Of a DNA stretch of 64,000 bases, positions 17,445 through 58,270 are shown piece after piece. Under the pieces are notes generated by a model. It saw only the letters and a program-made list of their open reading frames with translations. It was not told the DNA's origin and ran no database searches. Origin of the DNA: Hyphomicrobiales bacterium (GTDB taxonomy: Bacteria > Pseudomonadota > Alphaproteobacteria > Rhizobiales > OSC116); the NCBI GenBank assembly GCA_002401855.1, contig NVUH01000005.1, positions 69,969 through 133,968 of the forward strand, written 5' to 3'. Position 1 is the first letter of the stretch. Each line of letters begins with the position of its first letter. A program made the translations under genes and the position numbers.

Positions 17445-17580
17445 AAGCACCACAATTCGGCACTTCTGGAGATCTCCTCTGAACCCGAAGGGTGAAGCAA
17501 GGCCAAGCGGCCGTCGCCGTTAGGCGCAGCAAGCAAACGGAGTTTGCGCACGCAGTGCTAAGCATAAGTGCAGAATTTCG
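17445..17580 (+). repeat. Repeat-family locus B (shortened right-half element) inside the def-fmt spacer
   Basis: AATTCGGCAC, ACCC-GAA-GGGT, GGCC-AAGC-GGCC, GTCGCCGTTAGGCG and a degenerate core ...GCGCACGCAGTGCTA match the right half of loci C, E and F. Also contains the palindrome GGAGATCTCC (17467-17476). Confidence 0.85.
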
Positions 17581-17599
17581 CAACGAAGTGGAGAAAGTT

Positions 17600-18526
17600 T
17601 TGCGTATTATTTTTATGGGCACGCCCGAAATATCAGTCAATACCTTAGGCGAGCTAATATCACAAGGCCACGACATTGTGGCGGTATACAGCCAACCACC
17701 ACGCCCAGCTGGTCGCGGCAAGAGCCTACGCAAAACCCCCGTGCATCAATTTGCCGAAGATATGGGGCTAGAAGTTTACACCCCGCTAAATTTTAAAGCC
17801 CAAGCCGACATTGATATCTTTGCCGCCCATCAGGCCGAAGTCGCCGTGGTCGTGGCATACGGCTTGCTACTGCCCAAAGCCATCCTAGATGCACCAGAGC
17901 ATGGCTGTCTAAACCTACACGCCTCACTATTGCCAAGGTGGCGTGGTGCAGCACCCATTCAACGCGCCATCATGGCAGGCGATGCCAAATCAGGCATGAT
18001 GGTGATGCAAATGGATGAAGGCTTAGACACTGGCGACATCTGCTTGGTAGATATGATACCCATCACCCCAAATATGACGGCAGGTGAGCTACACGACTTA
18101 ATGGCACCTTTAGGCGCAAACCTAATGGCACGCGCCATTTCGGCACTAGAATGGGGCGGCCACAGCGAAACCCCGCAGGCTGACGAGGGCGCAACCTACG
18201 CCAAAAAAATTGACAAAGCCGAAGCCAAAATCGACTGGTCATCAGACGCACAAAACTTGCACAACCACATACGCGGCCTATCACCATTCCCAGGCGCATG
18301 GTGTGAATTTGAAAAAGACGGCAAAACCACCCGAATTAAAATTCTAGGCACAGAAATGACGGATGGCAACGGAACAGCAGGTGAATTGCTAGATGATGAA
18401 CTAACCGTAGCCTGCGGTTCAGGCGCGCTACGCATAACCCGCTTGCAGCGCTCTGGCAAAGGCGTTAGCAGCATGGCCGATTTCCAACGCGGGTACTTTA
18501 TTGCCAAAGGTGAGCGGTTTATTTGA
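17600..18526 (+). CDS. fmt: Methionyl-tRNA formyltransferase
   Basis: Track ORF 17492..18526 begins in repeat sequence. TTG 17600 after GGAGAA gives the canonical (M)[13 protein letters not shown]-terminus. Also [15 protein letters not shown]. Confidence 0.9.
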
Positions 18527-18544
18527 TGTTTCGGCGACAGAAAA

Positions 18545-19130
18545 ACCCACTAACTGTTTTTTTGCGGCCTATACGGGGAAGCATCCTGCCAGCGCTCTGG
18601 AAGTTTGCATTTTTGTTTGGCACTGCGTGCGTTCGCTCCGCTCTCTAGCTAAGCCACTCAGCCGCTGGTCGGAGGCAAATTCGGCACCCCAATCAACTAC
18701 ATTACGCTTAGTGAGCTAGAGTTTGGAGAAGCTCCGAGTATAGGTGCTATATAATTTACTCATTGTGCTTTTCATGGAAAAAGAGTCCGAAGCCTTTGGC
18801 TGAGGCAAGCGCGACCGCGCGTCGCCGTTAGGCGTGGCAAGAGAGCGGAGCGAACGCACGCTAGTGCTAACAGAGAGGCGAAGCCGAATGAAAAAATGAG
18901 ACTTCCAGAGCTTAGGCAGGAGCGCTACCCGGTATAGGCTGTAAAAAGACAGTTGGCTGGTAGTTGAGGCTCTGGAAGTCTGCTCTTATTTCGTTCGCGG
19001 CTATTCTTCGCTTTGCTCAGGCCTACACGGGTGCGCCACATAAGTGGCGGCCTCCAGTTCGGCTGGCTCTAAAAACACATGAGTTTTTAGAGCAAGAGGT
19101 GTACTGAAAGGTTGCGGCTGGGGTGCCGAG
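18545..19130 (+). repeat. Repeat-family locus C (full mosaic element plus extra modules) between fmt and ftsK
   Basis: Junction CTCTGGAAGTTTGCA 18595-18609. Core GCACTGCGTGCGTTCGCTCCGCTCTC 18620-18645. Inverted core 18841-18867. Inverted junction 18897-18910. Second junction 18970-18983. Extra hairpin CTCTAAAAAC/GTTTTTAGAG 19067-19092. Confidence 0.95.
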
Positions 19131-19134
19131 TTTC

Positions 19135-22100
19135 TTAAAACTCGTCATTATTCCCAACAAGAATTTCACGCTTGCCAGCATGATTGGCCGCGCCAATCAC
19201 CCCGTCTTCTTCCATCCGCTCAATAATCGTTGCCGCGCGGTTATATCCGATCGACAATTTACGTTGAATATAGCTAGTCGAAGCTTTTTGATCCCGCGCC
19301 ACAATTGCTACCGCTTGGTCATATAAATCCAAAGCTTCACCATTTTCATCGGTGGTTGGCGCAGGGCCGCCATCTGGTGCAGCAACTTCAGTTTCGCCTT
19401 CAACATCAACCGTAATGTCTTCAATATATTCAGGCACACCTTGGCGTTTCAAATGGTTCACAACGCTTTCAACTTCTTCATCTGCCACAAACGCACCATG
19501 CACGCGGTTAATCCGCCCGCCGCCAGCCATATGCAGCATATCACCTTGGCCGAGCAATTGCTCAGCACCCATTTCATTCAAAATGGTGCGGCTGTCAATT
19601 TTACTGGTCACTTGGAACGAAATACGCGTCGGGAAGTTGGCCTTAATCGAACCGGTAATCACGTCAACACTAGGGCGTTGCGTGGCGGTAATCATATGAA
19701 TGCCCGCCGCCCGCGCCATTTGCGCCAAACGTTGAATCACCCCTTCAATTTCCTTGCCCGCCACCATCATCAGATCGGCCATTTCGTCAATCACAATCAC
19801 GATAAACGGCATCTCTTCATATTCCAAAGCTTCATGCTCATAAACTGGCTTACCAGTTTTGTGGTCAAAGCCAGTTTGCACCGTGCGCACCAGCGGCTCG
19901 CCTTTGTCTGCCGCAGCTTTAATCCGTTGGTTATAACCTTCAATGTTACGCACGCCCATTTTGGCCATCTTCTTATAGCGGTTTTCCATTTCCCGCACGC
20001 TCCATTTAAGCGCCACAATGGCCTTTTTAGGGTCAGTCACCACGGGGGTGAGCAAATGCGGAATGCCATCATAAACTGACAATTCAAGCATTTTCGGGTC
20101 AACCAAAATCAACTTACATTTGTCAGGCGGCATCTTATATAAGATCGACAAGATCATACTGTTAATGCCAACCGATTTACCCGAGCCTGTGGTGCCCGCA
20201 ATCAGCAAATGCGGCATGCGCGCAAGGTCGGCCACCACGGGGGTGCCATCAATGCTTTTGCCTAAGGCCATCGGCAATTTTAACTTGTTGCCTTTAAATT
20301 CTTCCGATGAAATAATCTCGTTCAAATAAACCGTATCACGATGTTCATTAGGCAATTCAATGCCGATAATGTTACGCCCCGGTATCACCGCAATACGTGC
20401 AGAAATAGCGCTCATGCTACGTGCAATGTCATCGGCCAAGCCAATAACCCGTGCCGATTTAACTCCAGGAGCTGGCTCTAATTCATAAAGCGTAACCACA
20501 GGCCCGGGGCGGACATTCATAATTTCGCCACTGATGCGAAACTCAGCCAGTACATTTTCCAAAATACGTGCATTGGCGGCCAATATCTTTTCAGACACTT
20601 TATTGTCCAGATCGCTGCTTATTGGCATGGATAAAAGGTCAATCGATGGCAATTCATAATCATCAGCGGAGGGTCCGCCATGGTTGAAACCAGTTCCCGC
20701 TTGGCTAACCTTGCGGCCTTTGCGCACATTAACTTGCGGAGCACTTAAATCAAACGGTTGTACATGAGGCGTTGGCGCTGGCTCGGCTGGCTCAATCACT
20801 GTAGTGGGTGCAGCAGCAATGGGTGCTGCGGCAATGGGTGCTGCGGCAATGGGTGCGGCTGCCACAGGAGCTGCTGGTGCCACAGGCGCTGGTTCGGCAA
20901 TAAATGGCTGCGCTGCTAAAGGCGCTGCTTGTTGTGGCGCATATTGTGGCGCGGCTGGTTGTGCAAAATTTTGCGGAGCTCCATTAAAAGCTGGCATATC
21001 ATTATACGCAGTCTCTTCAGCATGTGCAGGCGCGGCTTCATAATGTGGCGGTGTAGTAAACTCAGTAGTTTGATACGGTGTTTCAAAATATGTTTCTGGT
21101 GCGGCGTTAGGTGCAACATTCTGAGCAACATTTGGTGCAAAGGGTTGAATATAAGGTGCCGCATGTGCTTGCGCTGCATCATGGGCGCGTATCGCGGGCA
21201 TCTGCATATCAGGCGCAAACCGTCTATCTTGAGTGGGCGCACTATCAGCCCAATAATCTTCATAACTATTGGGGCCATCGTAAAAATCGCCCATTTCTGG
21301 CATGCCAACCACTTCAGAACGCACATTATTAGTCAATGATGCTGGGTTTGTTTGGGGCGCAGGATTTAATTGCGGTGCCATGTTAATCTTATATGGGTCG
21401 GCAACTTGTTGCTGATAATGCGTTTGCACATCTTGGTTGAGCGCCGGAATATGCGCCCCAGTTTGTGCATTGCGGATTGGTTCAAACGCATGCGGGTTAA
21501 AGTTTGGCTCGATATGGCGGTGCATATTAATATTGCCAGAATCGGCTTTAGGGGCGCTGAGGTTTGATATGATTTTAGAGAAAAATTGTTGGGTGCGCGC
21601 TTTTAACGGATTATAGACCTTGTTGCGCGTGCCGCCAAGACGGCCTGCTTCATCATCGTTATTTCTAGATAAGAATTCAGGAATGTTTTTCATATCAGTC
21701 TCATTCATAGCGGCTAAATTGGGGGATATATTTGTTAAATCTTCATATTCTAACGGGGCATGATCACTTCGTGTTTTCCACGGTTTTCTATCGCCTTGGA
21801 ACGGCTCTTTATTTTGGCTTCTTAGGCTGGCAATATGGTTAGCCAAGCTTAAAGATTTGCGGCCCAAAACATGTGATTTATTTTTAGCATTCTGCATGAT
21901 TTGTGCGCCAGAATCGATGCTGGCTTCATTTAAAAACGTAAGCGTGGCGAGCATTTCTTTAAACCGCAAACCACAAGCATATAACCCGAGCGCCAAGCCT
22001 ATAATGGCCAATAAAATAGCCGCAATGCTTTTGGCCACCATATGCACTGATGAGCCAAGCAAATCAGACATAATGGTGATGGTCACATCACCAGCAATGC

Positions 22101-22572
22101 CGCCCAAACCCACTTTAAGCGGCCAGCCAGCAAATGTGGGAATAGCCGACAAGCTACCGGCAATACAAAAACCTGCAAAAACCCACGCAATGACGCGTAA
22201 AATGGGGCGTTTTATTTGTTTGTGGCGGGTTAGGCTTAAGCCCGCCAAAGCAATTGGGATCAATAAAAATACGATGGCCAATCCAAAAGTTTGGATCAGA
22301 AAATCTGACATATAAGCACCAGTCAGACCAAGGTAATTTTGCACCATATCGGATGTCGCATGGTTAAGGCTTGGGTCTGTTGCAGACCAAGAAACGACGG
22401 CCACGGCAACAAATGCCACAAGGCTAATAATCAACAAGCCAACAATCTCTAAAAACCGATTGAGTAAAAATTGTTGCAATGATTTGGGCAAAATGCGGGT
22501 GCTTTCAATCGCCTCTTCAATGTCATCATGATGCAGAGCTTGATAACCTACTTCGTGTGAAAAATCACTCAT
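19135..22572 (-). CDS. ftsK: DNA translocase FtsK
   Basis: 1145 aa. N-terminal multi-TM domain, very long P/A/Q-rich linker, motor domain with Walker A GTTGSGKSVGIN, C-terminal gamma (winged-helix) domain. Confidence 0.95.
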   Translation of the reverse strand: MSDFSHEVGYQALHHDDIEEAIESTRILPKSLQQFLLNRFLEIVGLLIISLVAFVAVAVVSWSATDPSLNHATSDMVQNYLGLTGAYMSDFLIQTFGLAIVFLLIPIALAGLSLTRHKQIKRPILRVIAWVFAGFCIAGSLSAIPTFAGWPLKVGLGGIAGDVTITIMSDLLGSSVHMVAKSIAAILLAIIGLALGLYACGLRFKEMLATLTFLNEASIDSGAQIMQNAKNKSHVLGRKSLSLANHIASLRSQNKEPFQGDRKPWKTRSDHAPLEYEDLTNISPNLAAMNETDMKNIPEFLSRNNDDEAGRLGGTRNKVYNPLKARTQQFFSKIISNLSAPKADSGNINMHRHIEPNFNPHAFEPIRNAQTGAHIPALNQDVQTHYQQQVADPYKINMAPQLNPAPQTNPASLTNNVRSEVVGMPEMGDFYDGPNSYEDYWADSAPTQDRRFAPDMQMPAIRAHDAAQAHAAPYIQPFAPNVAQNVAPNAAPETYFETPYQTTEFTTPPHYEAAPAHAEETAYNDMPAFNGAPQNFAQPAAPQYAPQQAAPLAAQPFIAEPAPVAPAAPVAAAPIAAAPIAAAPIAAAPTTVIEPAEPAPTPHVQPFDLSAPQVNVRKGRKVSQAGTGFNHGGPSADDYELPSIDLLSMPISSDLDNKVSEKILAANARILENVLAEFRISGEIMNVRPGPVVTLYELEPAPGVKSARVIGLADDIARSMSAISARIAVIPGRNIIGIELPNEHRDTVYLNEIISSEEFKGNKLKLPMALGKSIDGTPVVADLARMPHLLIAGTTGSGKSVGINSMILSILYKMPPDKCKLILVDPKMLELSVYDGIPHLLTPVVTDPKKAIVALKWSVREMENRYKKMAKMGVRNIEGYNQRIKAAADKGEPLVRTVQTGFDHKTGKPVYEHEALEYEEMPFIVIVIDEMADLMMVAGKEIEGVIQRLAQMARAAGIHMITATQRPSVDVITGSIKANFPTRISFQVTSKIDSRTILNEMGAEQLLGQGDMLHMAGGGRINRVHGAFVADEEVESVVNHLKRQGVPEYIEDITVDVEGETEVAAPDGGPAPTTDENGEALDLYDQAVAIVARDQKASTSYIQRKLSIGYNRAATIIERMEEDGVIGAANHAGKREILVGNNDEF
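20811..20890. repeat. In-frame 15-nt tandem repeat inside the ftsK linker
   Basis: GC(A/T)GC(A/G)GCAATGGGT x3 at 20811-20855, then degenerate units. Encodes AAPIAAAPIAAAPIAAAP / VAPAAPVAAAP on the minus strand. Confidence 0.85.
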
Positions 22573-23780
22573 TGGCTTACCCCCATTTTTGAATAATATG
22601 TAACCAGTCTTTGTAAGGCGTTGCGTGTGTCATCCAAACTGCCAACCAAGGCCAAGCGTAGATAATCACTGGCGCTTTCTTCTGGGTCATTATGTGCCGC
22701 CAAATAAGACAGATAAGCACCCGGTAACGCCTTAATGCCGCAATGCGCCCACAAATCTTGCGTGGCTTTAACACCGCCGCCATGTGCACTCATATCTAAC
22801 CATAAGAAAAACCCGCCCCGTGGCCGTGTGTAACCAAAACGATCGCCTAAAATCTCGTCTGCAATGTCGAATTTTTGATTGTATAATTTGCGATTTTCTA
22901 TCACATGTTGTTCATCTGACCATGCCGCAACAGAAACCAATTGCAAGGGCAGTGGCACTTGCGCTGCAGCTATGTTGCGCATGGCTTTAAACCGAGCGAT
23001 GAAATCAGCATCACCTACGCAGAAACCCGAGCGCAAGCCTGGCAAGCTAGAGCGTTTAGACAAAGAGAAAAAGCTAATGACATTTTTAAAATCAGCTTGG
23101 TTGGCAGCAATTTCTAACGCACTTATTGGCGCTTCATCAGCATATATTTCGCTATAACATTCATCTGAAAAAATATAAAAATCATATTTACGTGCCATGG
23201 CAATCAGCATGGCAAAATAAGTGGCATCAGCAAATACACCCTGTGGATTGGCGGGAGAGCAGATAAAAAATGCGCTCATCCGTTGCCATTCATCTTCCCT
23301 GACTTTGGTGATATCGGGCAAAAAACCTGAGCTTTTGGGTGATGGCAAAAACAGTAATTCGGCCTGTGCCGCCATTGCACCCGCCGCATAAACCTGATAA
23401 AATGGGTCAGGCATCGCAATGACGGGTTTAGCAGTTGTATCAGATTTCACCGCCATTAAAGCCGCGTTAAATAGGCCTTCGCGTGTGCCGTTAAGTGCCA
23501 CGACATGCTTATCTTTATCGACCAATCCATTGAGTGAAAAACGTTTATTCACCCAATCGGCATTGGCGCTTCGTAGCTCATCTATGCCTAATGAATTAGG
23601 ATATTTACCAAAGCCAGCGATGTTTTGGTTAATGATGCTGGCAACAAAATCAGGGAAGGCATGTTTAGGTTCACCAATTGACATATCCAAAATAGTTTGG
23701 CTCGGCGTCACGCCCGCAATGAGCTGGCGAAGCTTGGAAAATGGCCCCTCGGGCAGATGATCAAATAAATATTGTTCCAT
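22569..23780 (-). CDS. Class I/II pyridoxal-phosphate-dependent aminotransferase
   Basis: PLP-lysine motif FSLSKRSSLPGLRSG. ~400 aa from ATG 23780 (MEQYLFDHLP). Stop overlaps the ftsK start (ATGA at 22569-22572). Confidence 0.8.
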   Translation of the reverse strand: MEQYLFDHLPEGPFSKLRQLIAGVTPSQTILDMSIGEPKHAFPDFVASIINQNIAGFGKYPNSLGIDELRSANADWVNKRFSLNGLVDKDKHVVALNGTREGLFNAALMAVKSDTTAKPVIAMPDPFYQVYAAGAMAAQAELLFLPSPKSSGFLPDITKVREDEWQRMSAFFICSPANPQGVFADATYFAMLIAMARKYDFYIFSDECYSEIYADEAPISALEIAANQADFKNVISFFSLSKRSSLPGLRSGFCVGDADFIARFKAMRNIAAAQVPLPLQLVSVAAWSDEQHVIENRKLYNQKFDIADEILGDRFGYTRPRGGFFLWLDMSAHGGGVKATQDLWAHCGIKALPGAYLSYLAAHNDPEESASDYLRLALVGSLDDTRNALQRLVTYYSKMGVSQ

Positions 23781-23951
23781 GGGCACTCTAAACAAAATGA
23801 AACGATTTTGAGCTACAACCACGCAACTCTCACGGTCTCAAGCTACCAAACTAGAGTTAAGAGCAGGTTAAAAAGACGAGCTAAACTTGCAGATATGTGA
23901 ATAAAATGATTAAAACTTGAGTGAAACGAGTTAAATAAATTAACTTTATAT

Positions 23952-24320
23952 GTTCGGCTTCGCCTCTCTTTTTATCGTTCGCGTTGCTCTCTATAAGCAC
24001 TAGCGTGCGTTCGCTCCGCTCTCTTGCCACGCCTAACGGCGACGCGCAGTCGCGCTTGCCTCAGCCCAAGGGCTTCGGACCCTTTTCCCATGATATGCAG
24101 TATAGTACCAAGCAGCAAACTCCGAATTTGTTGGGGCGCACCGAAATACGGAGTTTCACCAAACTCTAGCTAACTTAGCTTAATGAAGTCACGTTGGGTG
24201 GTGAATTCGCATCCGATCAGCGGCCGAGTGGCTTAGCTAGGGAGCGGAGCGAACGCACGCAGTGCCAAACATAATGCAAACTTCCAGAGCGTTGGCAGTA
24301 GCGCTATACTGCTTGCTCGG
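23952..24320 (-). repeat. Repeat-family locus D (full element, central module inverted relative to C, E and F)
   Basis: Core 23997-24023. Inverted core 24240-24265. Inverted junction TGCAAACTTCCAGAG 24275-24289. The central ~215 nt is the reverse complement of the C/E/F centre. Confidence 0.95.
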
Positions 24321-24822
24321 AATATAGCTGTTTGGCACGGCCTAAATCTATTTCGAGGCTGAATTCTAAAAAATAACCTAGCTGCCAATTCTGAGTTTTG
24401 ACGGCTTGTTTGTTGATGGCTTTGTCCCATGATGGGTAAACTCGTATGCCGTTTTTGCCGCGTTTTTGGGTGGTCGATATTATGCCGTGTTTGGCTAAGG
24501 CTGTTTTGGGGAAGACGAATTGTCCGAATTTATCGCCATTGGCGCAATTGATGACCAGTAGATCAAACTTGTCATCTATATGCTGTGGTTGGGTGATGCC
24601 TTGTTGATCGCGCTGCCAAATGGCGACAAATTGGCCGATTTTCTTTGGGGTGATTTTGGCGGTGCGGGTGATGATTGTGAGTTGGTTTAATTTATATGTG
24701 CCTGCGCCATATTCGTTGCTTTCTTTATCTTTAGTCGCATGTGAGATTGTGAAATTTAATGGTTGATAGAGCTGTTTCTGAATAAAACTGAGATTTTGGC
24801 TGAATATTGTTTGGTTGGACAT
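24304..24822 (-). CDS. Hypothetical protein, possibly MepB-like
   Basis: 172 aa. KKIGQFVAIWQRD... resembles my recollection of MepB-family proteins; not verifiable here. The last codons and the stop lie in repeat D sequence. Confidence 0.4.
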   Translation of the reverse strand: MSNQTIFSQNLSFIQKQLYQPLNFTISHATKDKESNEYGAGTYKLNQLTIITRTAKITPKKIGQFVAIWQRDQQGITQPQHIDDKFDLLVINCANGDKFGQFVFPKTALAKHGIISTTQKRGKNGIRVYPSWDKAINKQAVKTQNWQLGYFLEFSLEIDLGRAKQLYSEQAV

Positions 24823-24959
24823 CTGTAAAATTTACCTAAAATTTAATTAAAAAATAGTCTTAATAAATTGTAAAAAAAACGTTAAATTAACACTTTGATA
24901 ACTATATCAGCGTAAATATTAACCCAGTATAGGTGAACAAATCAAGACTGAGGTTTAGT

Positions 24960-26714: not shown

Positions 26715-26737
26715 AAATCTTTAATTCTTAAAGTAAA

Positions 26738-26770: not shown

Positions 26771-27345
26771 AATGTTTGGCACTGCCTCTTTATGTTTGGC
26801 ACTGCGTGCGTTCGCTCCGCTCTCTAGCTAAGCCACTCGGCCGCTGATCGGATGTGAATTCGGCACCTAAGTTGACCTCATTAAGCTAAGTTGGCTGGAA
26901 TATGCCGACATTCTGAGTTTCGGTGGTATCCTTGTTGATGCTCTGGAAGTTTGCATTATATTTGGCACTGCGTGCGTTCGCTCCGCTCTCTAGCTAAGCC
27001 ACTCAGCCGCTGATTGGATGTGAATTCGGCACCCCAATCAACTAAATTACGCTTAGTGAGCTAGAGTTTGGAGAAGCACCGAGTATGGGTGCTAAACTGC
27101 TACTCATTGTGCTTTTCTTGGAAAATATGCCCGACCCCGTAGGGTGAGGCAAGGCCGACTGGCCGTCGCCGTTAGGCGTGGCAAGAGAGTGGAGCGAACG
27201 CACGCAGTGCTACTAGCTCACCGATAGGTGGGCGAAAAAGAGAGGCGAAGCCGAACGAAAAAATGTAGACTTCCAGAGCTTAGGCAGGAGTGCGACCCTA
27301 GTATAGGCTGTAAAAAGACAGTTAGCTGGTAGTTAGGGCTCTGGA
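26771..27345 (+). repeat. Repeat-family locus E (truncated copy followed by a full copy, in tandem)
   Basis: Cores at 26799-26824 and 26965-26990. Inverted core 27185-27210. Junctions 26941-26955 and 27329-27343. Inverted junction 27264-27278. ATGTTTGGCACTGC is duplicated at 26772 and 26792. Confidence 0.95.
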
Positions 27346-27390
27346 AGTTTGTACTTTTCCTGATATGGTGCGGGTGGGAGACTTATATAG

Positions 27391-48564: not shown

Positions 48565-48985
48565 ATTTTCTGAGTTGGTTGTAAATAGACAGTTGGCTGG
48601 TCGTTGAGGCTCTGGAAGTTTGCATTTTTTCGTTCGGCTTCGCCTCGCTTTTTATCGTTCGCGTTGCTCTCTATAAGCACTAGCGTGCGTTCGCTCCGCT
48701 CTCTAGCTAAGCCACTCAGCCGCTGGTCGGATGCGAATTCACCACCCCAATCAACTACATTACGCTTAGTAAGCTAGAGTTTGACGAAGCACCGAGTATA
48801 GGTGCCATATAATTTACTCATTGTGCTTTTCGTGGAAAAAAAGCCCGAACCCGTAGGGTGAGGCAAGCGCGACTGCGCGTCGCCGTTAGGCGTGGCAAGA
48901 GAGCGGAGTGAACGCACGCAGTGTTTATAGAGAGCAACGCGAACGACAAAAGAGAGGCGAAGCCGAACGTAAAAATGCAGAGACA
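48565..48985 (+). repeat. Repeat-family locus F (full element) between lepA and the LacI gene
   Basis: Junction 48610-48624. ~82-nt inverted arms (48621-48703 vs 48899-48980, ~90 percent complementary by eye) carry the core at 48677-48703 and the inverted core at 48899-48923. ~195-nt centre. Confidence 0.95.
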
Positions 48986-50058: not shown

Positions 50059-50134
50059 TTTATTGTGTGTGTATAGCCATTTAATATCAGTCTGTTGATT
50101 AGACTAGTAACGTAATTGCTATTTTTTTAAAAGA

Positions 50135-50170
50135 GTAAACGTTTACATTTTTGTTGTGTAAACCTTTACA
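50135..50170. promoter_or_regulatory. Two LacI-type operator palindromes
   Basis: Perfect GTAAACGTTTAC (50135-50146) and imperfect TGTAAACCTTTACA (50157-50170), 23 bp centre to centre, between lacI-family and ABC operon starts. They fit the TGnAAnCGnTTnCA-type consensus. Confidence 0.6.
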
Positions 50171-50237
50171 TTGTGCATAATTGACCTTAAATATTGCGAA
50201 GAGAATGAGAGATTAAGTAGCGTCTGGGGAGAGAAGC

Positions 50238-51758: not shown

Positions 51759-52778
51759 ATGGCTGAAATAGAATTAAATGAAGTGGATAAAAAATCCAAA
51801 AAAGGCATGCTTTCGAAGCTGGACTTTAAAACATTAGGGCCATTTATCGCCATGATTGTTTTGTTCATATTTGGCTATCTAATCAATGATGCGTTTATCA
51901 ATTCGGGTAATTTATCTAACATTCTCACCCGTTCATCTTTTATCGGCATCATTGCGGTGGGGGCAACATTTGTTATTACGGCGGGTGGTATTGACCTGTC
52001 GGTAGGGTCGATGGCGGCGTTTATTTCGGGCATTATGATTTTGGTGATGAATGAGCTGAAAACGGTGATGGAACCTGGCTTGATGATTATATTTGCTGGT
52101 GTGGCCATATCTGTTGTGTTGGGTGTTGTGGCTGGTTTTATCAATGGTTTTTTGACTACAAAGGGTAAAATTGAGGCGTTTATTGTGACGCTTGGTTCGA
52201 TGGGCATTTATCGTTCACTGGTCACTTATAGTGCCGATGGTGGTACAATTTCGCTCGATCGTGAAGTGCGGGCAATTTACCGCCCCGTCTATTATGAAGA
52301 TTTATTTGGCATTCCTATTCCTGTATTGGTGTTTGTTGCGGTGGCGATTATTGGCTATATATTGCTCAATAAAACCGTATTTGGGCGGCATTGTTTTGCC
52401 ATTGGCTCTAATGAGAATGTGGCAAAATATTCGGCGGTGAATGTGGATATAACCCGCATTAAAACTTATATTTTGCAGGGTATTTGTGTGTCGATTGCGA
52501 CCATTATTTATGTGCCACGCTTAGGTTCTGCCTCGGCGCAAACCGGTACATTGTGGGAGCTTGAAGCGATTGCTGCGGTGATTATTGGTGGCACCATGCT
52601 CAAAGGTGGTTATGGCCGCATTTGGGGCACGGTTATGGGTGCGCTTATCCTCACAATGATTGGCAATATTTTGAATTTAACCGATTTAATATCAAATTAT
52701 TTGAACGGAGCTGTACAAGGCGTGATCATCGTCGTGGCCGTTTATTTACAACGTGGTGATTGGAAGAAGAAAAAGTAA
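51759..52778 (+). CDS. Sugar ABC transporter permease (RbsC/branched type)
   Basis: 339 aa, ~10 TM helices. Starts directly after the ATPase stop. Confidence 0.9.
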   Translation: MAEIELNEVDKKSKKGMLSKLDFKTLGPFIAMIVLFIFGYLINDAFINSGNLSNILTRSSFIGIIAVGATFVITAGGIDLSVGSMAAFISGIMILVMNELKTVMEPGLMIIFAGVAISVVLGVVAGFINGFLTTKGKIEAFIVTLGSMGIYRSLVTYSADGGTISLDREVRAIYRPVYYEDLFGIPIPVLVFVAVAIIGYILLNKTVFGRHCFAIGSNENVAKYSAVNVDITRIKTYILQGICVSIATIIYVPRLGSASAQTGTLWELEAIAAVIIGGTMLKGGYGRIWGTVMGALILTMIGNILNLTDLISNYLNGAVQGVIIVVAVYLQRGDWKKKK

Positions 52779-52867
52779 TCACTCGTTTATAAAAGCGGGT
52801 TTGAGAAATCAAACCCATAATTGGCGTTATATTTATGCGCCGCGAAAATAAAACCTGGGAGGGAAAA

Positions 52868-53824
52868 ATGAAATTTTCGACTAAATTACTAGGGGCTGTT
52901 GCTGGCCTCGCAATGGCTGTATCATCAGGCGTTGCATCTGCTGAACCCCATACAATGGGTGTATCTATCCCGACTGCCGACCATGGTTGGACAGGTGGTG
53001 TAAACTATCATGCACAAGTGACTAAAGAGCGTTTGGAAGCACTTTATCCAGACCTTAAAATTGTGTTGGTAACCGCTGCTGACCCAACTTCACAAGCTAA
53101 TGACTTGGAAGACCTTGTGTCTATTCATAAAATTGAAGCTTTGGTTATTTTGCCAACAGACGGTGGCCCGCTTACTGAGCCTATCCGTGATGTTAAAGCT
53201 TCAGGTGCAACCATTACAGTGGTTGACCGTAGCTTGACTGATAATTCACTTGTTGACATTTATGTGGCTGGTAACAACCCTGAATTGGGCACAACATCGG
53301 CTAAATATATGGCTGAACATATGAATGGTACGGGTAACATTGTGATCTTGCGCGGCCTGCCTATTTCTATTGATGAAGAACGTTTTGACGCTTTCATGGC
53401 TGAAATTGGTAAGAGCAGTGGCATTACAGTGCTTGATAATAAGCATGCTAACTGGAACCGTGATGATGGCTTTACAGTGATGCAAGATTTCTTGGCGCGT
53501 TTCCCTAAAATTGATGGCGTATGGGCGCAAGATGATGACATCGCGCTAGGTGTGATTGAAGCGGTTAAAGAAGCTGGCCGTGAAGATGAGCTATTTATTG
53601 TTGGCGGTGCTGGCATGAAAGAAATGGTTAAACGGGTTATGGATGGTGATAAATTGGTGCCTGTTGATGTGCTATATCCGCCTGCGATGATTGCAACGGC
53701 TATGGAGATTACTGCATTGCAATTCGTTTCTGGTGCACCTGTTGAAGGTACGTTTATTGTGGGTTCGCCTTTGATTACACAAGAAAATGCTGCTAAATAT
53801 TATTTCCCAGACTCTTTGTTCTAG
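52868..53824 (+). CDS. Periplasmic sugar-binding protein (RbsB-like)
   Basis: Signal peptide MKFSTKLLGAVAGLAMAVSSGVASA after GGGAGGG. Type I periplasmic binding fold. Confidence 0.85.
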   Translation: MKFSTKLLGAVAGLAMAVSSGVASAEPHTMGVSIPTADHGWTGGVNYHAQVTKERLEALYPDLKIVLVTAADPTSQANDLEDLVSIHKIEALVILPTDGGPLTEPIRDVKASGATITVVDRSLTDNSLVDIYVAGNNPELGTTSAKYMAEHMNGTGNIVILRGLPISIDEERFDAFMAEIGKSSGITVLDNKHANWNRDDGFTVMQDFLARFPKIDGVWAQDDDIALGVIEAVKEAGREDELFIVGGAGMKEMVKRVMDGDKLVPVDVLYPPAMIATAMEITALQFVSGAPVEGTFIVGSPLITQENAAKYYFPDSLF

Positions 53825-53849
53825 GATTTAAGGTTAGTTACGAGTTTAG

Positions 53850-53882
53850 ATGCCTGAGGCGAAAGCCTTGGGCATTTTTTTT
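53850..53882 (+). terminator. Rho-independent terminator of the ABC operon
   Basis: ATGCCTGAGGC-GAAA-GCCTTGGGCAT followed by an 8-nt T-run. Confidence 0.8.
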
Positions 53883-53884
53883 GC

Positions 53885-54045
53885 GGCTAGCTCTGAACTT
53901 CAGTACAGCACTCGTATCCAAATAACGTGCCATACAGTGAGCGCGACAGCGGCCGTTCGAAGCCGCTGTCGTGCTCGCTGAAATGGCCTTTGTTTGGAAA
54001 CGAGGGGTAGATAGAAACTCTGAGTTTGCAGTTTTGGAAGTTTAT
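53885..54045. repeat. Repeat-family locus G (outer-arm module of locus A)
   Basis: 19-bp stem CAGTGAGCGCGACAGCGGC (53935-53953), loop CGTTCGAA, GCCGCTGTCGTGCTCGCTG (53962-53980). Flanks match the locus A arm (CCTCGTTTCC, AAACTC(A/T)GAGTTT). Confidence 0.85.
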
Positions 54046-54061
54046 TGTTGACTCTCGGTAT

Positions 54062-54093
54062 TTATCAATTATGTTAATTAACAATAATGATAA
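54062..54093. promoter_or_regulatory. AT-rich imperfect palindrome upstream of an ArsR-family gene
   Basis: Perfect 12-bp core TGTTAATTAACA (54072-54083) within TTATCAATTATGTTAATTAACAATAATGATAA. Confidence 0.4.
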
Positions 54094-54108
54094 ATAAGGT
54101 TTCGCATT

Positions 54109-54423
54109 ATGCAGCTCGCAAATACATTTTCAGCATTAGGTAACGCCACGCGCTTTGCTATTGTTGAGCGTTTGCTTAACGAAGGTGAATTGCCAGCTGG
54201 GGCATTTCTGGATATGAATGGTGTTTCGCCACCTGCTATGTCGCGCCACTTTAAAGTGTTGCGTGAGGCGGGGATTGTTAAGCAGCGGATTGATAAACAA
54301 CGGCGGATATATTCGGTGCGGCCGCAAGCGGTGCAGCAGATTAGTGACTGGTCGATAAGTTATCGGAAGTTCTGGGAAAGCGGGCTTGATCGGTTGGCGC
54401 TGGCTTTGAGTGAGGATGTTTGA
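54109..54423 (+). CDS. ArsR/SmtB-family transcriptional regulator
   Basis: 104 aa. FSALGNATRFAIVERLL...PPAMSRHFKVLREAG. Confidence 0.85.
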   Translation: MQLANTFSALGNATRFAIVERLLNEGELPAGAFLDMNGVSPPAMSRHFKVLREAGIVKQRIDKQRRIYSVRPQAVQQISDWSISYRKFWESGLDRLALALSEDV

Positions 54424-54863
54424 TGGAAGATGGTATTCTAATCTTGGAGCGTACTTTTGATGCGCCGCCTTATAAAGTGTTTGATTATGTGACGAAGAAA
54501 GAAAATCTACTTAAATGGTGGGGGCCAGAAAATTGTTATGTCGATGATAATGATTTGGACTTTACCATGGTTGGGCCGTATTTTTTTGTGATGGTGGCGC
54601 CTAATGGTGCTAAGGCCAAAGTGAGTGGCAAGGTGCTTGCCGTCAACCCGCCTTATATGGTTGAATTTAATATGTCGATGCCGGGTGATGAAGACTGTTT
54701 ACGCATGAGTGTGGTTAAATTTAAATTAGCTGCAAATGATGCGGGTGGGACAGATTTTACGCTTACACAAAGCGGGCTTACCAGTGAAGAGATTACCTTT
54801 AACCGTACTAATGGTTGGGTATCCACCCTTGCCCGTTTAGAAAAATTATTGAAAGAAACTTAA
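54420..54863 (+). CDS. SRPBCC/AHSA1-domain protein
   Basis: 147 aa. ERTFDAPPYKVFDYVT....LLKWWGP. 4-nt overlap with the arsR-type gene, which is the common ArsR-SRPBCC pairing. Confidence 0.75.
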   Translation: MMEDGILILERTFDAPPYKVFDYVTKKENLLKWWGPENCYVDDNDLDFTMVGPYFFVMVAPNGAKAKVSGKVLAVNPPYMVEFNMSMPGDEDCLRMSVVKFKLAANDAGGTDFTLTQSGLTSEEITFNRTNGWVSTLARLEKLLKET

Positions 54864-54895
54864 ACTAACCCCCAAAAGTAAAAAAGGATGAAAAA

Positions 54896-55225
54896 ATGGA
54901 CGAATTTGCAATTATATATGTGGGTCAAGGCACGCCTGACAAAATGCCAAAGACTAAAGAAGAAGGCATGGCGCACCGCCAGAAATGGATGGAATGGGTC
55001 GCAAGTCTTGGTGATGCTGTGGTTAGCCCCGGCCAGCCGATGATGGAGCATAAATTGGTTTCCTCTGAAGGCGTTTCAGACGTTGCCGAGGATGAGAAAT
55101 TTACTGGCTTTGCTGTGGTGAAAGCCGAAAATATTGAAGCGGCGATTAAAATTGCCAAATCTGACCCATTTTTAAACATGGGCGGCGGCGTGCAAGTGGC
55201 CAAAATGATGAAAATGCCAGGTTAG
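54896..55225 (+). CDS. Small cytoplasmic protein, possibly YciI-like
   Basis: 109 aa. ...FTGFAVVKAENIEAAIKIAKSDPFL..GGGVQV resembles the YciI-like fold C-terminus. Weak call. Confidence 0.4.
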   Translation: MDEFAIIYVGQGTPDKMPKTKEEGMAHRQKWMEWVASLGDAVVSPGQPMMEHKLVSSEGVSDVAEDEKFTGFAVVKAENIEAAIKIAKSDPFLNMGGGVQVAKMMKMPG

Positions 55226-55240
55226 GAAAAAGGTGGATTT

Positions 55241-55606
55241 ATGAAATTTATTAAAACCGAAAATATCCCCCTTTGGGTGACATTATTAGCGATGATTTTG
55301 GCACTTTCGGGCATGGGTCTGGGTATTATGAGCTTGCTTGGCCCTGTGCCAGACGCGCCGCAAATTACGCCTTATTTGGGTGGTAGATCGTTTGGTGTGG
55401 GTGTGGTATTTGGCTTTGCTGTGCTGCTTAAAAGCCCAGCCACTTATATTGCGGCTTTTGTTGCAGGTGCTGCACGTGAAATTGGCGATGTGTTTGGTGA
55501 GCTTACAACAGCTGTACCGAGTATGGGTACGGTTGCTGTAGAGCTTGTTATTGCAGTGATTTGCTTATTTGCAGCTTATTTGGCAAACAAGGCTAGAAAA
55601 GCCTAG
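55241..55606 (+). CDS. Hypothetical membrane protein
   Basis: 121 aa, four hydrophobic helices. No family recognised. Confidence 0.5.
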   Translation: MKFIKTENIPLWVTLLAMILALSGMGLGIMSLLGPVPDAPQITPYLGGRSFGVGVVFGFAVLLKSPATYIAAFVAGAAREIGDVFGELTTAVPSMGTVAVELVIAVICLFAAYLANKARKA

Positions 55607-55635
55607 CTAACAATTAAAACCCATATGAAGTTAGA

Positions 55636-55664
55636 ATGCCTAAGCTTGCTTAGGCATTTTTTTT
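55636..55664 (+). terminator. Terminator hairpin overlapping the 3' end of the convergent hydrolase gene
   Basis: AATGCCTAAGC-TT-GCTTAGGCATT followed by a T-run. The same bases encode ...YIKKNA-stop on the minus strand. Confidence 0.7.
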
Positions 55665-56474
55665 GATGTAGGCAGCGATGAATGCTGCCAGTGGTTCATC
55701 GCGCAAGATGCGTTTGTGGCCTAGGCCTTGGGTTGCATGAAACTCACCATTTGGCCAGTTTTTTTGCAAATTGGTAAATTCGGAAAATGGGATTTCTTTG
55801 TCATTTTCGTCATGGATAATTAGCGGCAATCTGGCTTTATATATATCACTATTGATTAGGCTAATAGAATCGACGGTGTGTTGGGTTAGTGCGTTTAACT
55901 TATCTAGCATCAGCTTTTGTGCTTTAAGTGATAAGTGAATGGTGGCAAAATATTTGTTAAATACGGTGCGTATATTGGTTGGCGCGGATATGAAGACCAG
56001 AATTTTAGGTAATGTTATATATTTATGTAATAAGCCGATGATGGCGCCACCCATAGAGTGGCCAATATAGGCTGCAGGCTTTAAGTCTTGTGATGCTAAA
56101 TCTTCGATTAAGGCCAAAGTCATGCTTAAAATTTGTGTTTTGGTGCCTGGTGAGGCGCCATGGGCAGGGGCGTTCCAGCCAATAACTTGATAATTTTGGG
56201 CTAATAATGCCCGAATGATGACATGAAATTGAGTGCCGCGTGATTCCCAGCCATGGCATAAGAATATAAGCGGGGCAGCTGGGTCACCCCAAAGGGTGGC
56301 GCGTCTGCCGCTGCTAAATGTGAGCTGTGTGCCTTCATTAAACAAAGCCAGCTCTTGCTCATTTCTGTCAAATTTACGCGGTCTGCTGAATAGGCTCAAC
56401 GCTAGGTTTGCTGCCATATTGGGCGAGGTGGTGGAGAGAATATTTATGAATGTGGGAATGTATTTTCTGAGCAT
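55650..56474 (-). CDS. Alpha/beta hydrolase
   Basis: 274 aa. HGWESRG, nucleophile elbow GHSMGG, C-terminal GLGHKRIL. Confidence 0.8.
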   Translation of the reverse strand: MLRKYIPTFINILSTTSPNMAANLALSLFSRPRKFDRNEQELALFNEGTQLTFSSGRRATLWGDPAAPLIFLCHGWESRGTQFHVIIRALLAQNYQVIGWNAPAHGASPGTKTQILSMTLALIEDLASQDLKPAAYIGHSMGGAIIGLLHKYITLPKILVFISAPTNIRTVFNKYFATIHLSLKAQKLMLDKLNALTQHTVDSISLINSDIYKARLPLIIHDENDKEIPFSEFTNLQKNWPNGEFHATQGLGHKRILRDEPLAAFIAAYIKKNA

Positions 56475-56552
56475 ATGTGTATCAATTATGGGGGGCCTGA
56501 TTGATTGGTTATTTTTGAATATAGTTATTAAATGCTTAAAACTTCAATAAAT

Positions 56553-56652
56553 TGCCATGCAATAACTGCATGGCAGGGTTTCGATAATGGTGCTTTTCAA
56601 TAAAAAAATATTATCTATATTGGCGTTAACAGGGAGCGATGCTCCACAATAT
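56553..56652 (+). promoter_or_regulatory. Leader/promoter module of DUF1127 cassette 1
   Basis: Palindrome GCCATGCA-N5-TGCATGGC (56553-56573). TTTTCA-N16-TATATT (56593-56620). Hairpin GGAGC-GAT-GCTCC (56632-56644). TATATT/AATATA complementarity. Confidence 0.45.
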
Positions 56653-56675
56653 AACACCATTTATGGAGAAGAAAC

Positions 56676-56861
56676 ATGGCTTTATTTACAGCGAATAAAA
56701 ATGCAAAATCAAAAAAATCAACTGGTCTATTGGCTAGATTTAATGAATCGGCTAAATTGCGCCGTGCTGAAAAAGCATTGCTTAAATTAGATGATCGCAT
56801 GCTTTCTGACATTGGTGTGTCTCGCGGTGATGTTCATGGTAAAGTTTGGGGCCAATTCTAA
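56676..56861 (+). CDS. DUF1127 small protein (paralog 1)
   Basis: 61 aa. KLRRAEKALLKLDDRMLSDIGVSRGDV matches the DUF1127 signature (R-rich helix + LSDRxLxDIGxxRxD). RBS GGAGA. Confidence 0.85.
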   Translation: MALFTANKNAKSKKSTGLLARFNESAKLRRAEKALLKLDDRMLSDIGVSRGDVHGKVWGQF

Positions 56862-56909
56862 ACCTAACCGCTAATAATTAGATGCGCAAATTTTTTATAG
56901 GATAAAAAC

Positions 56910-57074
56910 ATGGCTTATATTACACATACGGATGAACTAAAAACAACTTCATCTATCTTTGCTAAGATTTCTAAATTCTTGAAGAGTGTTGGAAATTCTT
57001 TTATACGGGCGCAAGAAGCTCGGGCGCGTCAACATGTTAAAAAATATATGACCAAAAGCTATAAACCTTTTTAG
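56910..57074 (+). CDS. Possible 54-aa basic peptide co-transcribed with DUF1127 paralog 1
   Basis: Manual ORF (below track cutoff): MAYITHTDELKTTSSIFAKISKFLKSVGNSFIRAQEARARQHVKKYMTKSYKPF. AGGA lies 8 nt upstream. The only terminator follows it. Confidence 0.3.
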   Translation: MAYITHTDELKTTSSIFAKISKFLKSVGNSFIRAQEARARQHVKKYMTKSYKPF

Positions 57075-57113
57075 GTTGTTGCTAAGAATTTTGGTTAAAG
57101 TGTATTTTAAAAA

Positions 57114-57143
57114 GCCTTTCACGATTGTGAGAGGCTTTTTGTT
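57114..57143 (+). terminator. Rho-independent terminator after cassette 1
   Basis: GCCTTTCAC-GATT-GTGAGAGGC followed by TTTTT. Confidence 0.75.
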
Positions 57144-57163
57144 TGTGAAGATATTATGACGCT

Positions 57164-57279
57164 AGCTATGCAATGAATGCATGGCTGGTGCGTTATAACT
57201 GTGCTTTTCATCATGGCTTAGAGTGCCTATATATAAGTTATTAGATGAGCAAGGGCTCTTCTTATTTGCCAAATATAGG
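57164..57279 (+). promoter_or_regulatory. Leader/promoter module of DUF1127 cassette 2
   Basis: Palindrome AGCTATGCA-N5-TGCATGGCT (57164-57186). TTTTCA-N17-TATATA (57205-57233). Hairpin GAGC-AAGG-GCTC (57247-57258). CCTATAT/ATATAGG (57226-57232 / 57273-57279) overlaps the AGGA RBS. Confidence 0.45.
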
Positions 57280-57288
57280 ATTAATATC

Positions 57289-57474
57289 ATGGCTTTATTT
57301 ACATTGACAAAAACAGACAAAACTAAAAAAACTACCGGCTTTATTGCAAAATATAGCGAAACTGCTAAATTGCGCCGCGCCGAAAGAGAATTGAATAAAA
57401 TGAGTGATCGTATGCTTGAAGATATTGGTGTATCTCGCGGCGATGTGCACGGTAAAATTTGGGGTGAGTTCTAA
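57289..57474 (+). CDS. DUF1127 small protein (paralog 2)
   Basis: Start moved to internal ATG 57289 (MALFTLTKTDKTKK...). KLRRAERELNKMSDRMLEDIGVSRGDV. Confidence 0.85.
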   Translation: MALFTLTKTDKTKKTTGFIAKYSETAKLRRAERELNKMSDRMLEDIGVSRGDVHGKIWGEF

Positions 57475-57510
57475 GAACTAACCTAACCAACAGCCGAATA
57501 TAGTTTCTGA

Positions 57511-57546
57511 AGCCTTCTGATATTTTTAATGTCAGAGGGCTTTTTT
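57511..57546 (+). terminator. Rho-independent terminator after cassette 2
   Basis: GCCTTCTGA-N11-TCAGAGGGC followed by TTTTTT. Confidence 0.75.
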
Positions 57547-57556
57547 GTTGGTTAGA

Positions 57557-57715
57557 TTTATGTTTGGCCCCTGCGGGCACAACACATCCGTGTTGCTTGC
57601 TAAGCCACTCAGCCGCTGGTCTTATTGTTTATTCACCACCCCATTTAGGCTCATTATTTTACGTTGAGTAGAGTTTGGCGAAATACCGCATGTTGGTGCT
57701 ATACGGATATTCGGG
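57557..57715 (+). repeat. Repeat-family locus H (left-half variant)
   Basis: ATGTTTGGCC..., variant core with hairpin GCACAACAC-ATCC-GTGTTGC, then GCTAAGCCACTCAGCCGCTGGTC, ATTCACCACCCC, GAGTAGAGTTTGG. Confidence 0.85.
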
Positions 57716-57746
57716 ACTGGTTAGGGTGTGTCGGTTAAATTTTGGG

Positions 57747-57861
57747 GTCATGTAATAAATGCATGGCTGGTGTGTTGTAACTGCGCTTTTCATTGTGGGG
57801 TGGATTGCCTATATATAGGTTGTTAGACGGAACAAGGGTTCCTCTTATTGCTACATATAGG
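57747..57861 (+). promoter_or_regulatory. Leader/promoter module of DUF1127 cassette 3
   Basis: Palindrome GTCATGTA-N5-TGCATGGC (57747-57767, two G-T positions). TTTTCA-N17-TATATA (57787-57815). Hairpin GGAAC-AAGG-GTTCC (57829-57842). CCTATAT/ATATAGG (57808-57814 / 57855-57861). Confidence 0.45.
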
Positions 57862-57870
57862 ATTAGTATT

Positions 57871-58056
57871 ATGGGTTTATTTACATTGACGAAAACAGAA
57901 ACAACTAAAAAATCAGCTGGCTTTATCGCAAAATATAGCGAAACTGCTAAATTGCGCCGCGCTGAAAAAGAATTGAATAAAATGAGCGATCGTATGCTTG
58001 AAGATATTGGTATATCTCGCGGTGATGTTCATGGTAAAGTTTGGGGTTCTTTTTAA
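57871..58056 (+). CDS. DUF1127 small protein (paralog 3)
   Basis: Start moved to ATG 57871 (MGLFTLTKTETTKK...). 52 of 61 residues identical to paralog 2 by my count. Confidence 0.85.
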   Translation: MGLFTLTKTETTKKSAGFIAKYSETAKLRRAEKELNKMSDRMLEDIGISRGDVHGKVWGSF

Positions 58057-58087
58057 GAATAACCAACAGCCGAATATAGTTTCTAAA

Positions 58088-58121
58088 GCCTTCTGATATT
58101 ATAATGTCAGAGGGCTTTTTT
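58088..58121 (+). terminator. Rho-independent terminator after cassette 3
   Basis: GCCTTCTGA-N9-TCAGAGGGC followed by TTTTTT. Confidence 0.75.
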
Positions 58122-58132
58122 GTTGGTTGGTT

Positions 58133-58270
58133 TTATGTTTGGCCACTGCGTGCGCAACACATCCGTGTTGCTTGCTACGCCTAACGGCGACGGCCAGTCG
58201 GCCTTGCCTCAGCCTAAAGGCTTCGGATTTTTTCCCTCGAATGGTTTTACTCATCGCATGGTGAATGAGA
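58133..58270 (-). repeat. Repeat-family locus I (variant core + inverted right-half module)
   Basis: ATGTTTGGCCACTGCGTGCG, hairpin GCAACAC-ATCC-GTGTTGC, then TACGCCTAACGGCGAC-GGCC-AGTC-GGCC-TTGCCTCAGCCTAAAGGCTTCGG, the reverse complement of the right half of C, E and F. Confidence 0.85.

Follow-up and report, generated by a model that had tools for sequence, protein, structure and literature searches.

Base pairing is kept in the serial mini-hairpins of a mosaic intergenic repeat family from an uncultured alphaproteobacterial lineage

The 64,000-nt stretch of a Hyphomicrobiales bacterium genome analysed here (GenBank assembly GCA_002401855.1, contig NVUH01000005.1, positions 69,969 to 133,968 of the forward strand; hereafter the window) carries several copies of an intergenic repeat built from very small hairpins. 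Comparison of these copies with their relatives in three other genomes supports the conclusion that base pairing in the mini-hairpins is kept above the copy-and-paste background. An initial annotation of the window had pointed to two small stems that differ between copies and nevertheless stay complementary; all 12 of the stem sequences and coordinates that it quoted proved exact when we rechecked them, and the pattern that it described reaches three further hairpins of the same repeat.

The family is recognised by a core, GTCGCCGTTAGGCGYRGCAAG, which occurs six times in the window (17513+, 18821+, 24023-, 27165+, 48879+ and 58171-) where 0.01 occurrence is expected in shuffled sequence. The repeat unit (~95 nt), read in the orientation in which the core is GTCGCCGTTAGGCG, consists of five serial mini-hairpins on one strand, separated by conserved single-stranded joints. 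It starts with CCGA, followed by H2 (the second of the two stems first described), with a tandem G.A internal loop and an outer CC/GG stem on its flanks, and then by GAGGCAA. Next come H1 (the first of those stems, GSSC-GACY-GSSC) and GT, H3 (CGCC-GTTA-GGCG) and YRGCAAG, then H4, a variable stem of 5-6 bp closed by a GGA(N) loop, a single C, and finally H5, which is either GCAC-GCA-GTGC or GCCC-GCA-GGGG. The loops and the spacers of the units are kept in sequence. The window holds six long-form and at least five short-form units, all of them intergenic.

Two arrangements are found. Units stand alone (copies B and I), or they form the right arm of a ~370-nt imperfect palindrome, in which inverted pairs surround a ~110-nt centre. 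The left arm of the palindrome is an inverted short-form unit without the 30-nt H1-GT-H3 module, so that only one arm has this module. At the H4 position, the full palindromes hold AGAGCGGAGCGAAC, which pairs with the left arm and not locally, and the whole element folds as a ~370-nt rod (minimum free energy, MFE, -195 kcal/mol; z = -10.8). The centre of the full elements, in copies C, D, E and F as in the other genomes, exists in at least two unrelated variants, alpha (...GGTGCTAWAYTGCTACTCATTGTGC...) and beta (...GGTGCGCCCCAACAAATTCGGAGTTTGCTGC...), which substitute for each other at orthologous loci. A small peptide encoded in the centre was considered and rejected, as the candidate start codon differs among copies (CATGG, CGTGG, CTTGG, CAAGG).

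Pairing and linkage in the mini-hairpins

Fifty-nine long-form copies from four genomes, six of them from the window and 53 from the metagenome-assembled genomes (MAGs) NORP194, NORP83 and DT_99, were aligned on the structure H2+H1+H3+H5. Pair cells are of a standard type in 97.5% of cases, versus 89.9% in shuffles and 22-46% when the partners are slid. The covariation score, 0.176 versus 0.052, was reached by none of 500 shuffles; six pairs changed on both sides, a number attained in 3 of the 500, and 15 further pair types were counted, attained in 2. The claim of the initial annotation that paired positions change together is hence borne out, with pairing above the shuffle background.

Hairpin by hairpin, H1 is found in the CG/GC form (GCGC..GCGC) in 47 copies and in the GC/CG form (GGCC..GGCC) in 11, and never as a mixture of the two. 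The second pair of H2 is GC in 36 copies, CG in 21 and AU in one; H2 also shows the one-copy compensated variants AACC/GGTT (locus L004) and ACAC/GTGT (L035), as well as a U-A outer pair in two NORP83 copies, and its stems are still paired while the loop length ranges from 3 to 5 nt. The covarying pair of H5 is AU in 52 copies and CG in six. H3 is invariant, and so uninformative on covariation. The strongest case is H4, with 15 variants in 23 copies: seven unrelated stems, all beneath the conserved GGA(N) loop, are represented by CGATRC, CAAAC, CAACAC, CTTGC, CACGC and TGGGAT, plus GAATGC and CGAGCC in a Pontixanthobacter element (see below).

Could the variants simply be two subfamilies copied as blocks, as the initial annotation had itself proposed as a refutation? 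We found complete linkage (r2 = 1.00, two gametes) for the paired alignment columns 19-29, 39-48, 40-47 and 100-107, and r2 of at most 0.44, mostly with four gametes, for all remaining polymorphic site pairs in the 60-nt core. The loop column 45, which lies between the arms of H1, gave r2 0.01, and the 3' arm of H2 and the 5' arm of H1, only 10 nt apart, gave r2 0.05. Moreover, all four H1 x H2 haplotypes occur inside the alpha centre type (10, 1, 9 and 4 copies), both H1 states are present in three genomes, and the rare AAGC loop stands on both H1 backgrounds (copy B and L034). Because linkage is confined to paired sites and four haplotypes share one centre type, block copying of two subfamilies fails as an explanation of the pairing.

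Exchange of blocks is itself visible. At the two loci that were compared with NORP194 (copy D with L018, copy E with L037), the centre, H2 and H1 were swapped as a whole, and both stems switched state in both pairs. The arms of these elements diverge by 0.06-0.13 and the part from H3 to H5 by 0.02-0.06, the swapped block by 0.34 with indels, and the spacer outside the element is unalignable. These data imply either that compensated switches recurred, or that exchange is fine-grained and copies with mixed arms were removed, and a filter on pairing follows in both cases. The substitutions are compensated, as first described, but the H1 variation is an old dimorphism, spread and reshuffled through module exchange, rather than the product of many fresh changes.

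The long-range arms of the palindromes provide an internal control. In 38 full palindromes, the 22-bp long-range pairing is 97% Watson-Crick, lacks compensated changes and has symmetric mismatches (7 G.T, 8 A.C, 7 other), whereas those of the local hairpins are 15 G.T, 2 A.C and 4 other (Fisher p = 0.015 for local hairpins versus long-range arms; binomial p = 0.002 for G.T versus A.C). Furthermore, the left arm retains CTCAGCC where H2 has the C-G form, and the covarying object is therefore the local hairpin and not the long-range pairing. Selection is on the mini-hairpins of one particular strand.

Copies in the window and relatives in other genomes

The units of the window, with their hairpins, are the following.

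17476..17566, +: copy B, solo unit between def and fmt; H2 17483-17493 (ACCC-GAA-GGGT), H1 17501-17512 (GGCC-AAGC-GGCC), H3 17515-17526 (CGCC-GTTA-GGCG), H4 17534-17546 (CAAAC-GGA-GTTTG), H5 17548-17558 (GCAC-GCA-GTGC)
18566..18940, +: copy C, full palindrome of ~375 nt between fmt and ftsK (RNA MFE -195 kcal/mol, z = -10.8); left arm 18600-18661 (minus strand, inverted short-form unit); right arm with H2 18791-18801, H1 18809-18820 (GCGC-GACC-GCGC), H3 18823-18834, H5 18856-18867
23945..24310 (extent approximate), -: copy D, full element with a beta-type centre, between an aminotransferase gene and a MepB-like gene; H5 23997-24008, H3 24030-24041, H1 24044-24055 (GCGC state), H2 24063-24074
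26789..27310, +: copy E, full element (~26932-27310) after an extra partial left-arm copy (26789-26929), between ftsZ and a Sir2 gene; H2 27135-27145, H1 27153-27164 (GGCC state), H3 27167-27178, H5 27200-27210
48572..48980 (extent approximate), +: copy F, full element between lepA and a LacI-family gene; H2 48849-48859, H1 48867-48878 (GCGC state), H3 48881-48892, H5 48914-48924 (GCAC-GCA-GTGT, with a basal G.T)
58136..58232, -: copy I, solo unit between the third DUF1127 gene (+) and prmA (-); H5 58143-58153, H4 58155-58170 (CAACAC-GGAT-GTGTTG), H3 58178-58189, H1 58192-58203 (GGCC state), H2 58211-58222
11590..11651, +: short-form unit of the same family, without the 30-nt H1-GT-H3 module and absent from the initial annotation; CTGAG-TGGCTTAGCAAG, H4 CGATGC-GGA-GCATCG, H5
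57551..57612, -: short-form unit between DUF1127 genes 2 and 3; H4 CAACAC-GGAT-GTGTTG, H5 GCCC-GCA-GGGG (the C-G variant of the covarying pair)

The loop sequences first reported for these copies are correct as read on the plus strand, but D and I are minus-strand copies, so that their AGTC and AA loops are the reverse complements of GACT and TT. Once all copies are brought to a common orientation, the window has just two states of H1, GCGC (C, D and F) and GGCC (B, E and I). An extra module, GTATAGGCTGTAAAAAGACAGTTGGCTGGTAGTTGAGGCTCTGGAAG, is found at 18897-18983, 27265-27352 and 48572-48627, where it makes an additional hairpin with the outer CTTCCAGAGC of the element; its weak miRNA-like Rfam score is a chance match. 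Next to copy I, three tandem DUF1127 genes of 61 aa each lie on the plus strand at 56676-56861, 57289-57474 and 57871-58056 (Pfam E = 2e-8 to 4e-10), with a period of ~582-613 bp; repeat units separate or follow these genes, and the tract also contains an unrelated 54-aa open reading frame (ORF) at 56910-57074.

How widespread is the family? A scan of one genome per species (185,579 species) for the core with a 12-nt gap returned only three MAGs, namely Alphaproteobacteria NORP194 (~44 copies), OCS116-cluster NORP83 and Hyphomicrobiales DT_99, and one copy in Pontixanthobacter aquaemixtae, the other matches being due to chance. Orthologous genes of the window and NORP194 are roughly 92% identical, with a divergence of 0.07-0.25 at 4-fold sites. 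The Pontixanthobacter element (NZ_WTYX01000001.1; L009, 2535-2795) is an intergenic palindrome of ~260 nt that has the same architecture as the family and shares the 34-mer GCAAGCGCGACCGCGCGTCGCCGTTAGGCGTAGC exactly; H2, H4 and the outer stems differ, and both of its arms have GGA(N)-loop hairpins, on opposite strands. A scan of JGI metagenomes for the core gave four matches, none with the flanking modules or hairpins of the family, which we take as chance. Two loci of cyanobacterial MAGs, L053 ~5930-5990 (Okeania) and L064 ~7490-7550 (Waterburya), have CCGCGTCGCCGTTAGGCGCAAGGGAATGCTGACC in common around the same 14-mer; they probably represent an unrelated repeat that happens to contain a GTCGCC-GTTA-GGCGAC hairpin.

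Plasmid BLAST with the Pontixanthobacter element and copy I found no match, and a literature search for the core string returned nothing relevant. Rfam, run over the whole window at the gathering score, reported nothing except SRP RNA, and at E up to 5 over copies B and C only two chance eukaryotic models. The SRP RNA is of the bacterial small type (RF00169, 49.5 bits) and lies at 9588-9685 on the minus strand.

Strand bias and candidate explanations

Gene context was counted for the 48 copies with called ORFs (at least 100 aa) on both sides: 27 have convergent neighbours, 20 have co-directional ones (12 copies sense, 8 antisense) and one has divergent ones. The units lie downstream of genes, at their 3' ends, with nearly none between divergent genes, and they follow no transcription-sense rule. 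An initial idea that solo units are always sense to transcription was dropped when the DUF1127 genes were found on the plus strand.

The orientation of the units follows base composition. With the GC skew taken over +/-4 kb around each copy, the core strand is the locally G-rich strand in 34 copies versus 11, with 12 ambiguous (p = 0.0008), and the bias is present at both convergent (17:6) and co-directional (10:4) sites; co-directional copies with an unambiguous skew are sense or antisense in a ratio of 8:6. The genes at these loci amount to 92 kb on the G-rich strand versus 107 kb on the C-rich strand, and since they do not favour the G-rich strand, gene strand does not explain the orientation bias of the units. 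Across minus-strand genes of the window, the skew remains positive. Between 22000 and 26000, it changes from negative to positive near 24 kb, where the main gene strand also changes from minus to plus; this switch adjoins ftsZ and copy D and resembles a replication origin, or else a rearrangement or assembly breakpoint.

A G-rich strand is usually read as the lagging-strand template. The lagging-strand template is the single-stranded substrate of the IS200/IS605 transposase TnpA, and has been proposed as such for REP-associated tyrosine transposases (RAYTs) and their repetitive extragenic palindromes (REPs) as well (PMC6006769). Moreover, CCGA or CTGA stands before H2 in 54 of the 59 copies, and a CnGA foot has been reported for structures flanking class 3 TnpA-Y1 genes (PMC6006769); we treat this possible match as a lead.

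What keeps the hairpins paired? The explanation that we favour, with a probability of roughly 0.45, is that these are mosaic non-autonomous repeats resembling REPs, bacterial interspersed mosaic elements (BIMEs) and REP doublets forming hairpins (REPINs), and that their mini-hairpins act as single-stranded DNA (ssDNA) in a replication-linked process. Folded as ssDNA on the G-rich strand, which under the usual meaning of GC skew is the lagging-strand template, the hairpins would be recognised by an HUH/Y1 enzyme (IS200/IS605 TnpA, RAYT) or a comparable ssDNA-processing protein. Only hairpin-intact copies would then be propagated or serve as conversion donors, and pairing would be maintained. 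A more specific proposal, which we consider unlikely as it stands, is that the 30-nt H1-GT-H3 module might be recognised by an uncharacterised ssDNA-processing system that travels horizontally, such as a class 3-like HUH enzyme with a CnGA foot. This system would act on the lagging-strand template, with arrays of 4-bp hairpins replacing the one long stem of a REP. The module is identical over 34 nt in the OCS116-like MAGs (45% GC) and in Pontixanthobacter, a member of the Sphingomonadales, in elements that are otherwise diverged.

Several observations weigh against an ssDNA substrate of this kind. With approximate query sequences of IS200, IS608 and E. coli RAYT, tblastn gave no HUH/Y1/RAYT match in ~0.6 Mb. 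Neither a target-site duplication nor an empty site was seen, copy C ending without visible duplication, and both elements that could be compared (D and E) occupy the same sites as their NORP194 orthologues, with no sign of recent mobility. The units have no GT[AG]G foot, and their stems are of 4 bp (H1, H2, H3, H5) or 5-6 bp (H4), unlike those of canonical REPs. Four-bp stems are thermodynamically marginal and a lone one is within chance; indeed, single units fold no better than shuffles (z +0.1 to -1.9), so that significance must come from comparing copies. Three caveats attach to the pairing result itself: the H1 dimorphism may have had as few as one or two origins, exchange breakpoints may favour the conserved spacers, and mutation templated by the hairpin could alter both arms in concert in the absence of selection. 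A C-to-T bias on the G-rich strand may account for part of the G.T excess, although the long-range control suggests that this bias is only mild. That the G-rich strand is the lagging-strand template is here something we infer, on MAG contigs. Finally, ORF calling at 100 aa overlooks small genes, and copy I was misclassified in this way.

The main rival is an element acting at the level of RNA, a chain of hairpins in 3' untranslated or intercistronic RNA that would stabilise mRNA, give a signal for processing or termination, or act as a module bound by protein. E. coli REPs have been shown to act at the RNA level, and three loops are possible binding features, namely GGA(N) in H4, GTTA in H3 and the internal tandem G.A of H2. 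The location of copies downstream of genes, with copy B lying in sense orientation inside the def-fmt operon, agrees with this idea, as do the sequence conservation of loops and single-stranded spacers and the much greater tolerance of G.T (G.U) than of A.C mismatches; in some copies (L056, L009) the five-hairpin fold is also the RNA minimum-free-energy structure. But co-directional copies are nearly balanced between the two senses, at 12 versus 8, or 8 versus 6 with unambiguous skew, and orientation follows the GC skew instead; the short-form unit at 57551-57612 is antisense to the DUF1127 genes that flank it. The promoter and terminator scan found no site inside the units, none of them containing anything like an intrinsic terminator, and no Rfam match was obtained even at E up to 5. 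Furthermore, the site of a host RNA-binding protein should be widespread, and the core is present in only about five genomes; as for a GGA-loop sponge, CsrA was not found in the sequence examined. We therefore regard an RNA-level role as somewhat unlikely. The initial annotation had proposed a functional folded RNA or ssDNA rather than neutrally decaying repeats: the data support a structural constraint on a folded single strand and, of the two molecules, lean to ssDNA.

The pairing might also require no function at all, if quasi-palindrome correction by intrastrand template switching copied changes from arm to arm and gene conversion among the ~60 copies spread a few alleles. The whole-block swaps at both orthologous loci speak for such a process, and H1 is an ideal object for it, having two states, both old and common to three genomes, and arms that are self-palindromic 4-mers, hence direct as well as inverted repeats 8 nt apart. 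However, templated correction should also hit the 22-bp long-range arms, and these decay uncorrected and symmetrically. Seven unrelated H4 stems under one conserved loop, and H2 loops of 3-5 nt over paired stems, are hard to obtain without a pairing filter. The arms of orthologous elements diverge less than 4-fold sites (0.02-0.13 versus ~0.18) where the non-element spacer is unalignable, and the orientation bias with respect to GC skew is left unexplained, which makes this explanation distinctly improbable. Least probable, by far, are duplex sites for a dimeric protein that would read dyad symmetry and not hairpins. The palindromic tetramers of the H1 arms (GCGC/GGCC), 4 nt apart, and the invariance of H3 and the spacers would suit such a protein, but seven unrelated stems of H4, or three of H2, within one genome are more than a single protein can read, only complementarity being conserved, and both the G.T versus A.C asymmetry and the strand bias are meaningless for duplex recognition.

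Relation to known systems and other repeats of the window

Like the REP, BIME and REPIN elements that accompany RAYTs in E. coli and Pseudomonas, the units are extragenic, multi-copy imperfect palindromes, single or in inverted doublets that make long hairpins; they are mosaics of alternative modules at the 3' ends of transcription units, their stem variants keep pairing, and they persist at orthologous sites. In canonical REPs, the basal stem is at least 7 bp long and paired throughout, with GT[AG]G (or CGTC) 0-2 nt to its 5' side (PMC6006769, PMC3733652). Here, GTAG arises just from the GTA loop of H2 and the first G of its stem, in some copies, and the foot before H2 is CCGA; the unit is made of five hairpins rather than one, with the H1-GT-H3 module restricted to one arm. 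The CGTC-tagged REPs of alphaproteobacteria (Di Nocera et al. 2013) have stems of 8-9 bp, the first two positions being A-T, together with 4-5 nt loops and a CCA tail (PMC3733652). They share with the present family alphaproteobacterial hosts, the lack of a known associated transposase and mostly head-to-head dimers, and a CGTC tetranucleotide is found at the H1/H3 junction here (GCG-CGTC-GCC). Stem length and foot rule out membership of either the CGTC or the canonical GTAG group, and the stem, loop and tail features of the CGTC REPs are all absent.

The subterminal hairpins of IS200/IS605 and the CnGA-footed structures of class 3 TnpA-Y1 genes (Quentin et al. 2018, PMC6006769) are likewise short imperfect hairpins read on one strand as ssDNA, and coupling to the lagging-strand template (deduced here from GC skew), a tetranucleotide foot, high copy number and patchy taxonomy are further common traits. 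Unlike these systems, no tnpA lies beside any copy examined here. Compared with miniature inverted-repeat transposable elements, long inverted arms are present, and no parent insertion sequence was found. The Rhizobium-specific intergenic mosaic elements (RIMEs) and other alphaproteobacterial mosaic repeats are large intergenic palindromes of conserved modules and variable loops. Our family resembles RIMEs in general design, as large alphaproteobacterial intergenic palindromes, and no matching sequence string came out of the literature search.

Integron attC sites also act as folded single strands, and GTTAGGC of H3 fits the R' core consensus GTTRRRY. Nevertheless, an attC assignment was rejected: the strand has no R'' partner, there are no co-oriented cassette arrays, and the copies are scattered, in both orientations, among housekeeping genes (def, fmt, ftsK, ftsZ, lepA and prmA). 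The family is thus set apart from canonical REPs, CGTC REPs, attC sites and Rfam families, and is REP/BIME-like and previously undescribed.

The repeat family defined here occupies many of the intergenic regions in an uncultured, subseafloor and marine lineage of alphaproteobacteria, and its members could be mistaken in annotation for small RNAs, terminators or attC sites. One genome allows pairing-specific linkage, block copying and simple decay to be told apart, with the long-range arms as a built-in neutral control. It also raises the question of whether REP-like elements without a GTAG foot or a known RAYT, the alphaproteobacterial CGTC REPs included, are substrates of ssDNA enzymes too, a question that a natural case with a replication-related orientation bias makes testable.

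Two other repeats were noted in the window. A separate composite palindrome at 5893-6503 (~600 bp, arms 93% complementary) has some modules in common with the family (AGAGAGCGAAGCGAACGCACGC, GCTCTGGAAGTCTGC); another hairpin, CAGCGGC-CGTTCGAA-GCCGCTG, replaces H1-H3 in it, and a related copy lies at 53911-54005. In the ftsK ORF, the linker between the membrane and motor domains contains ~5 copies of a 15-nt tandem repeat, TGGGTGCWGCRGCAA (20805-20879).

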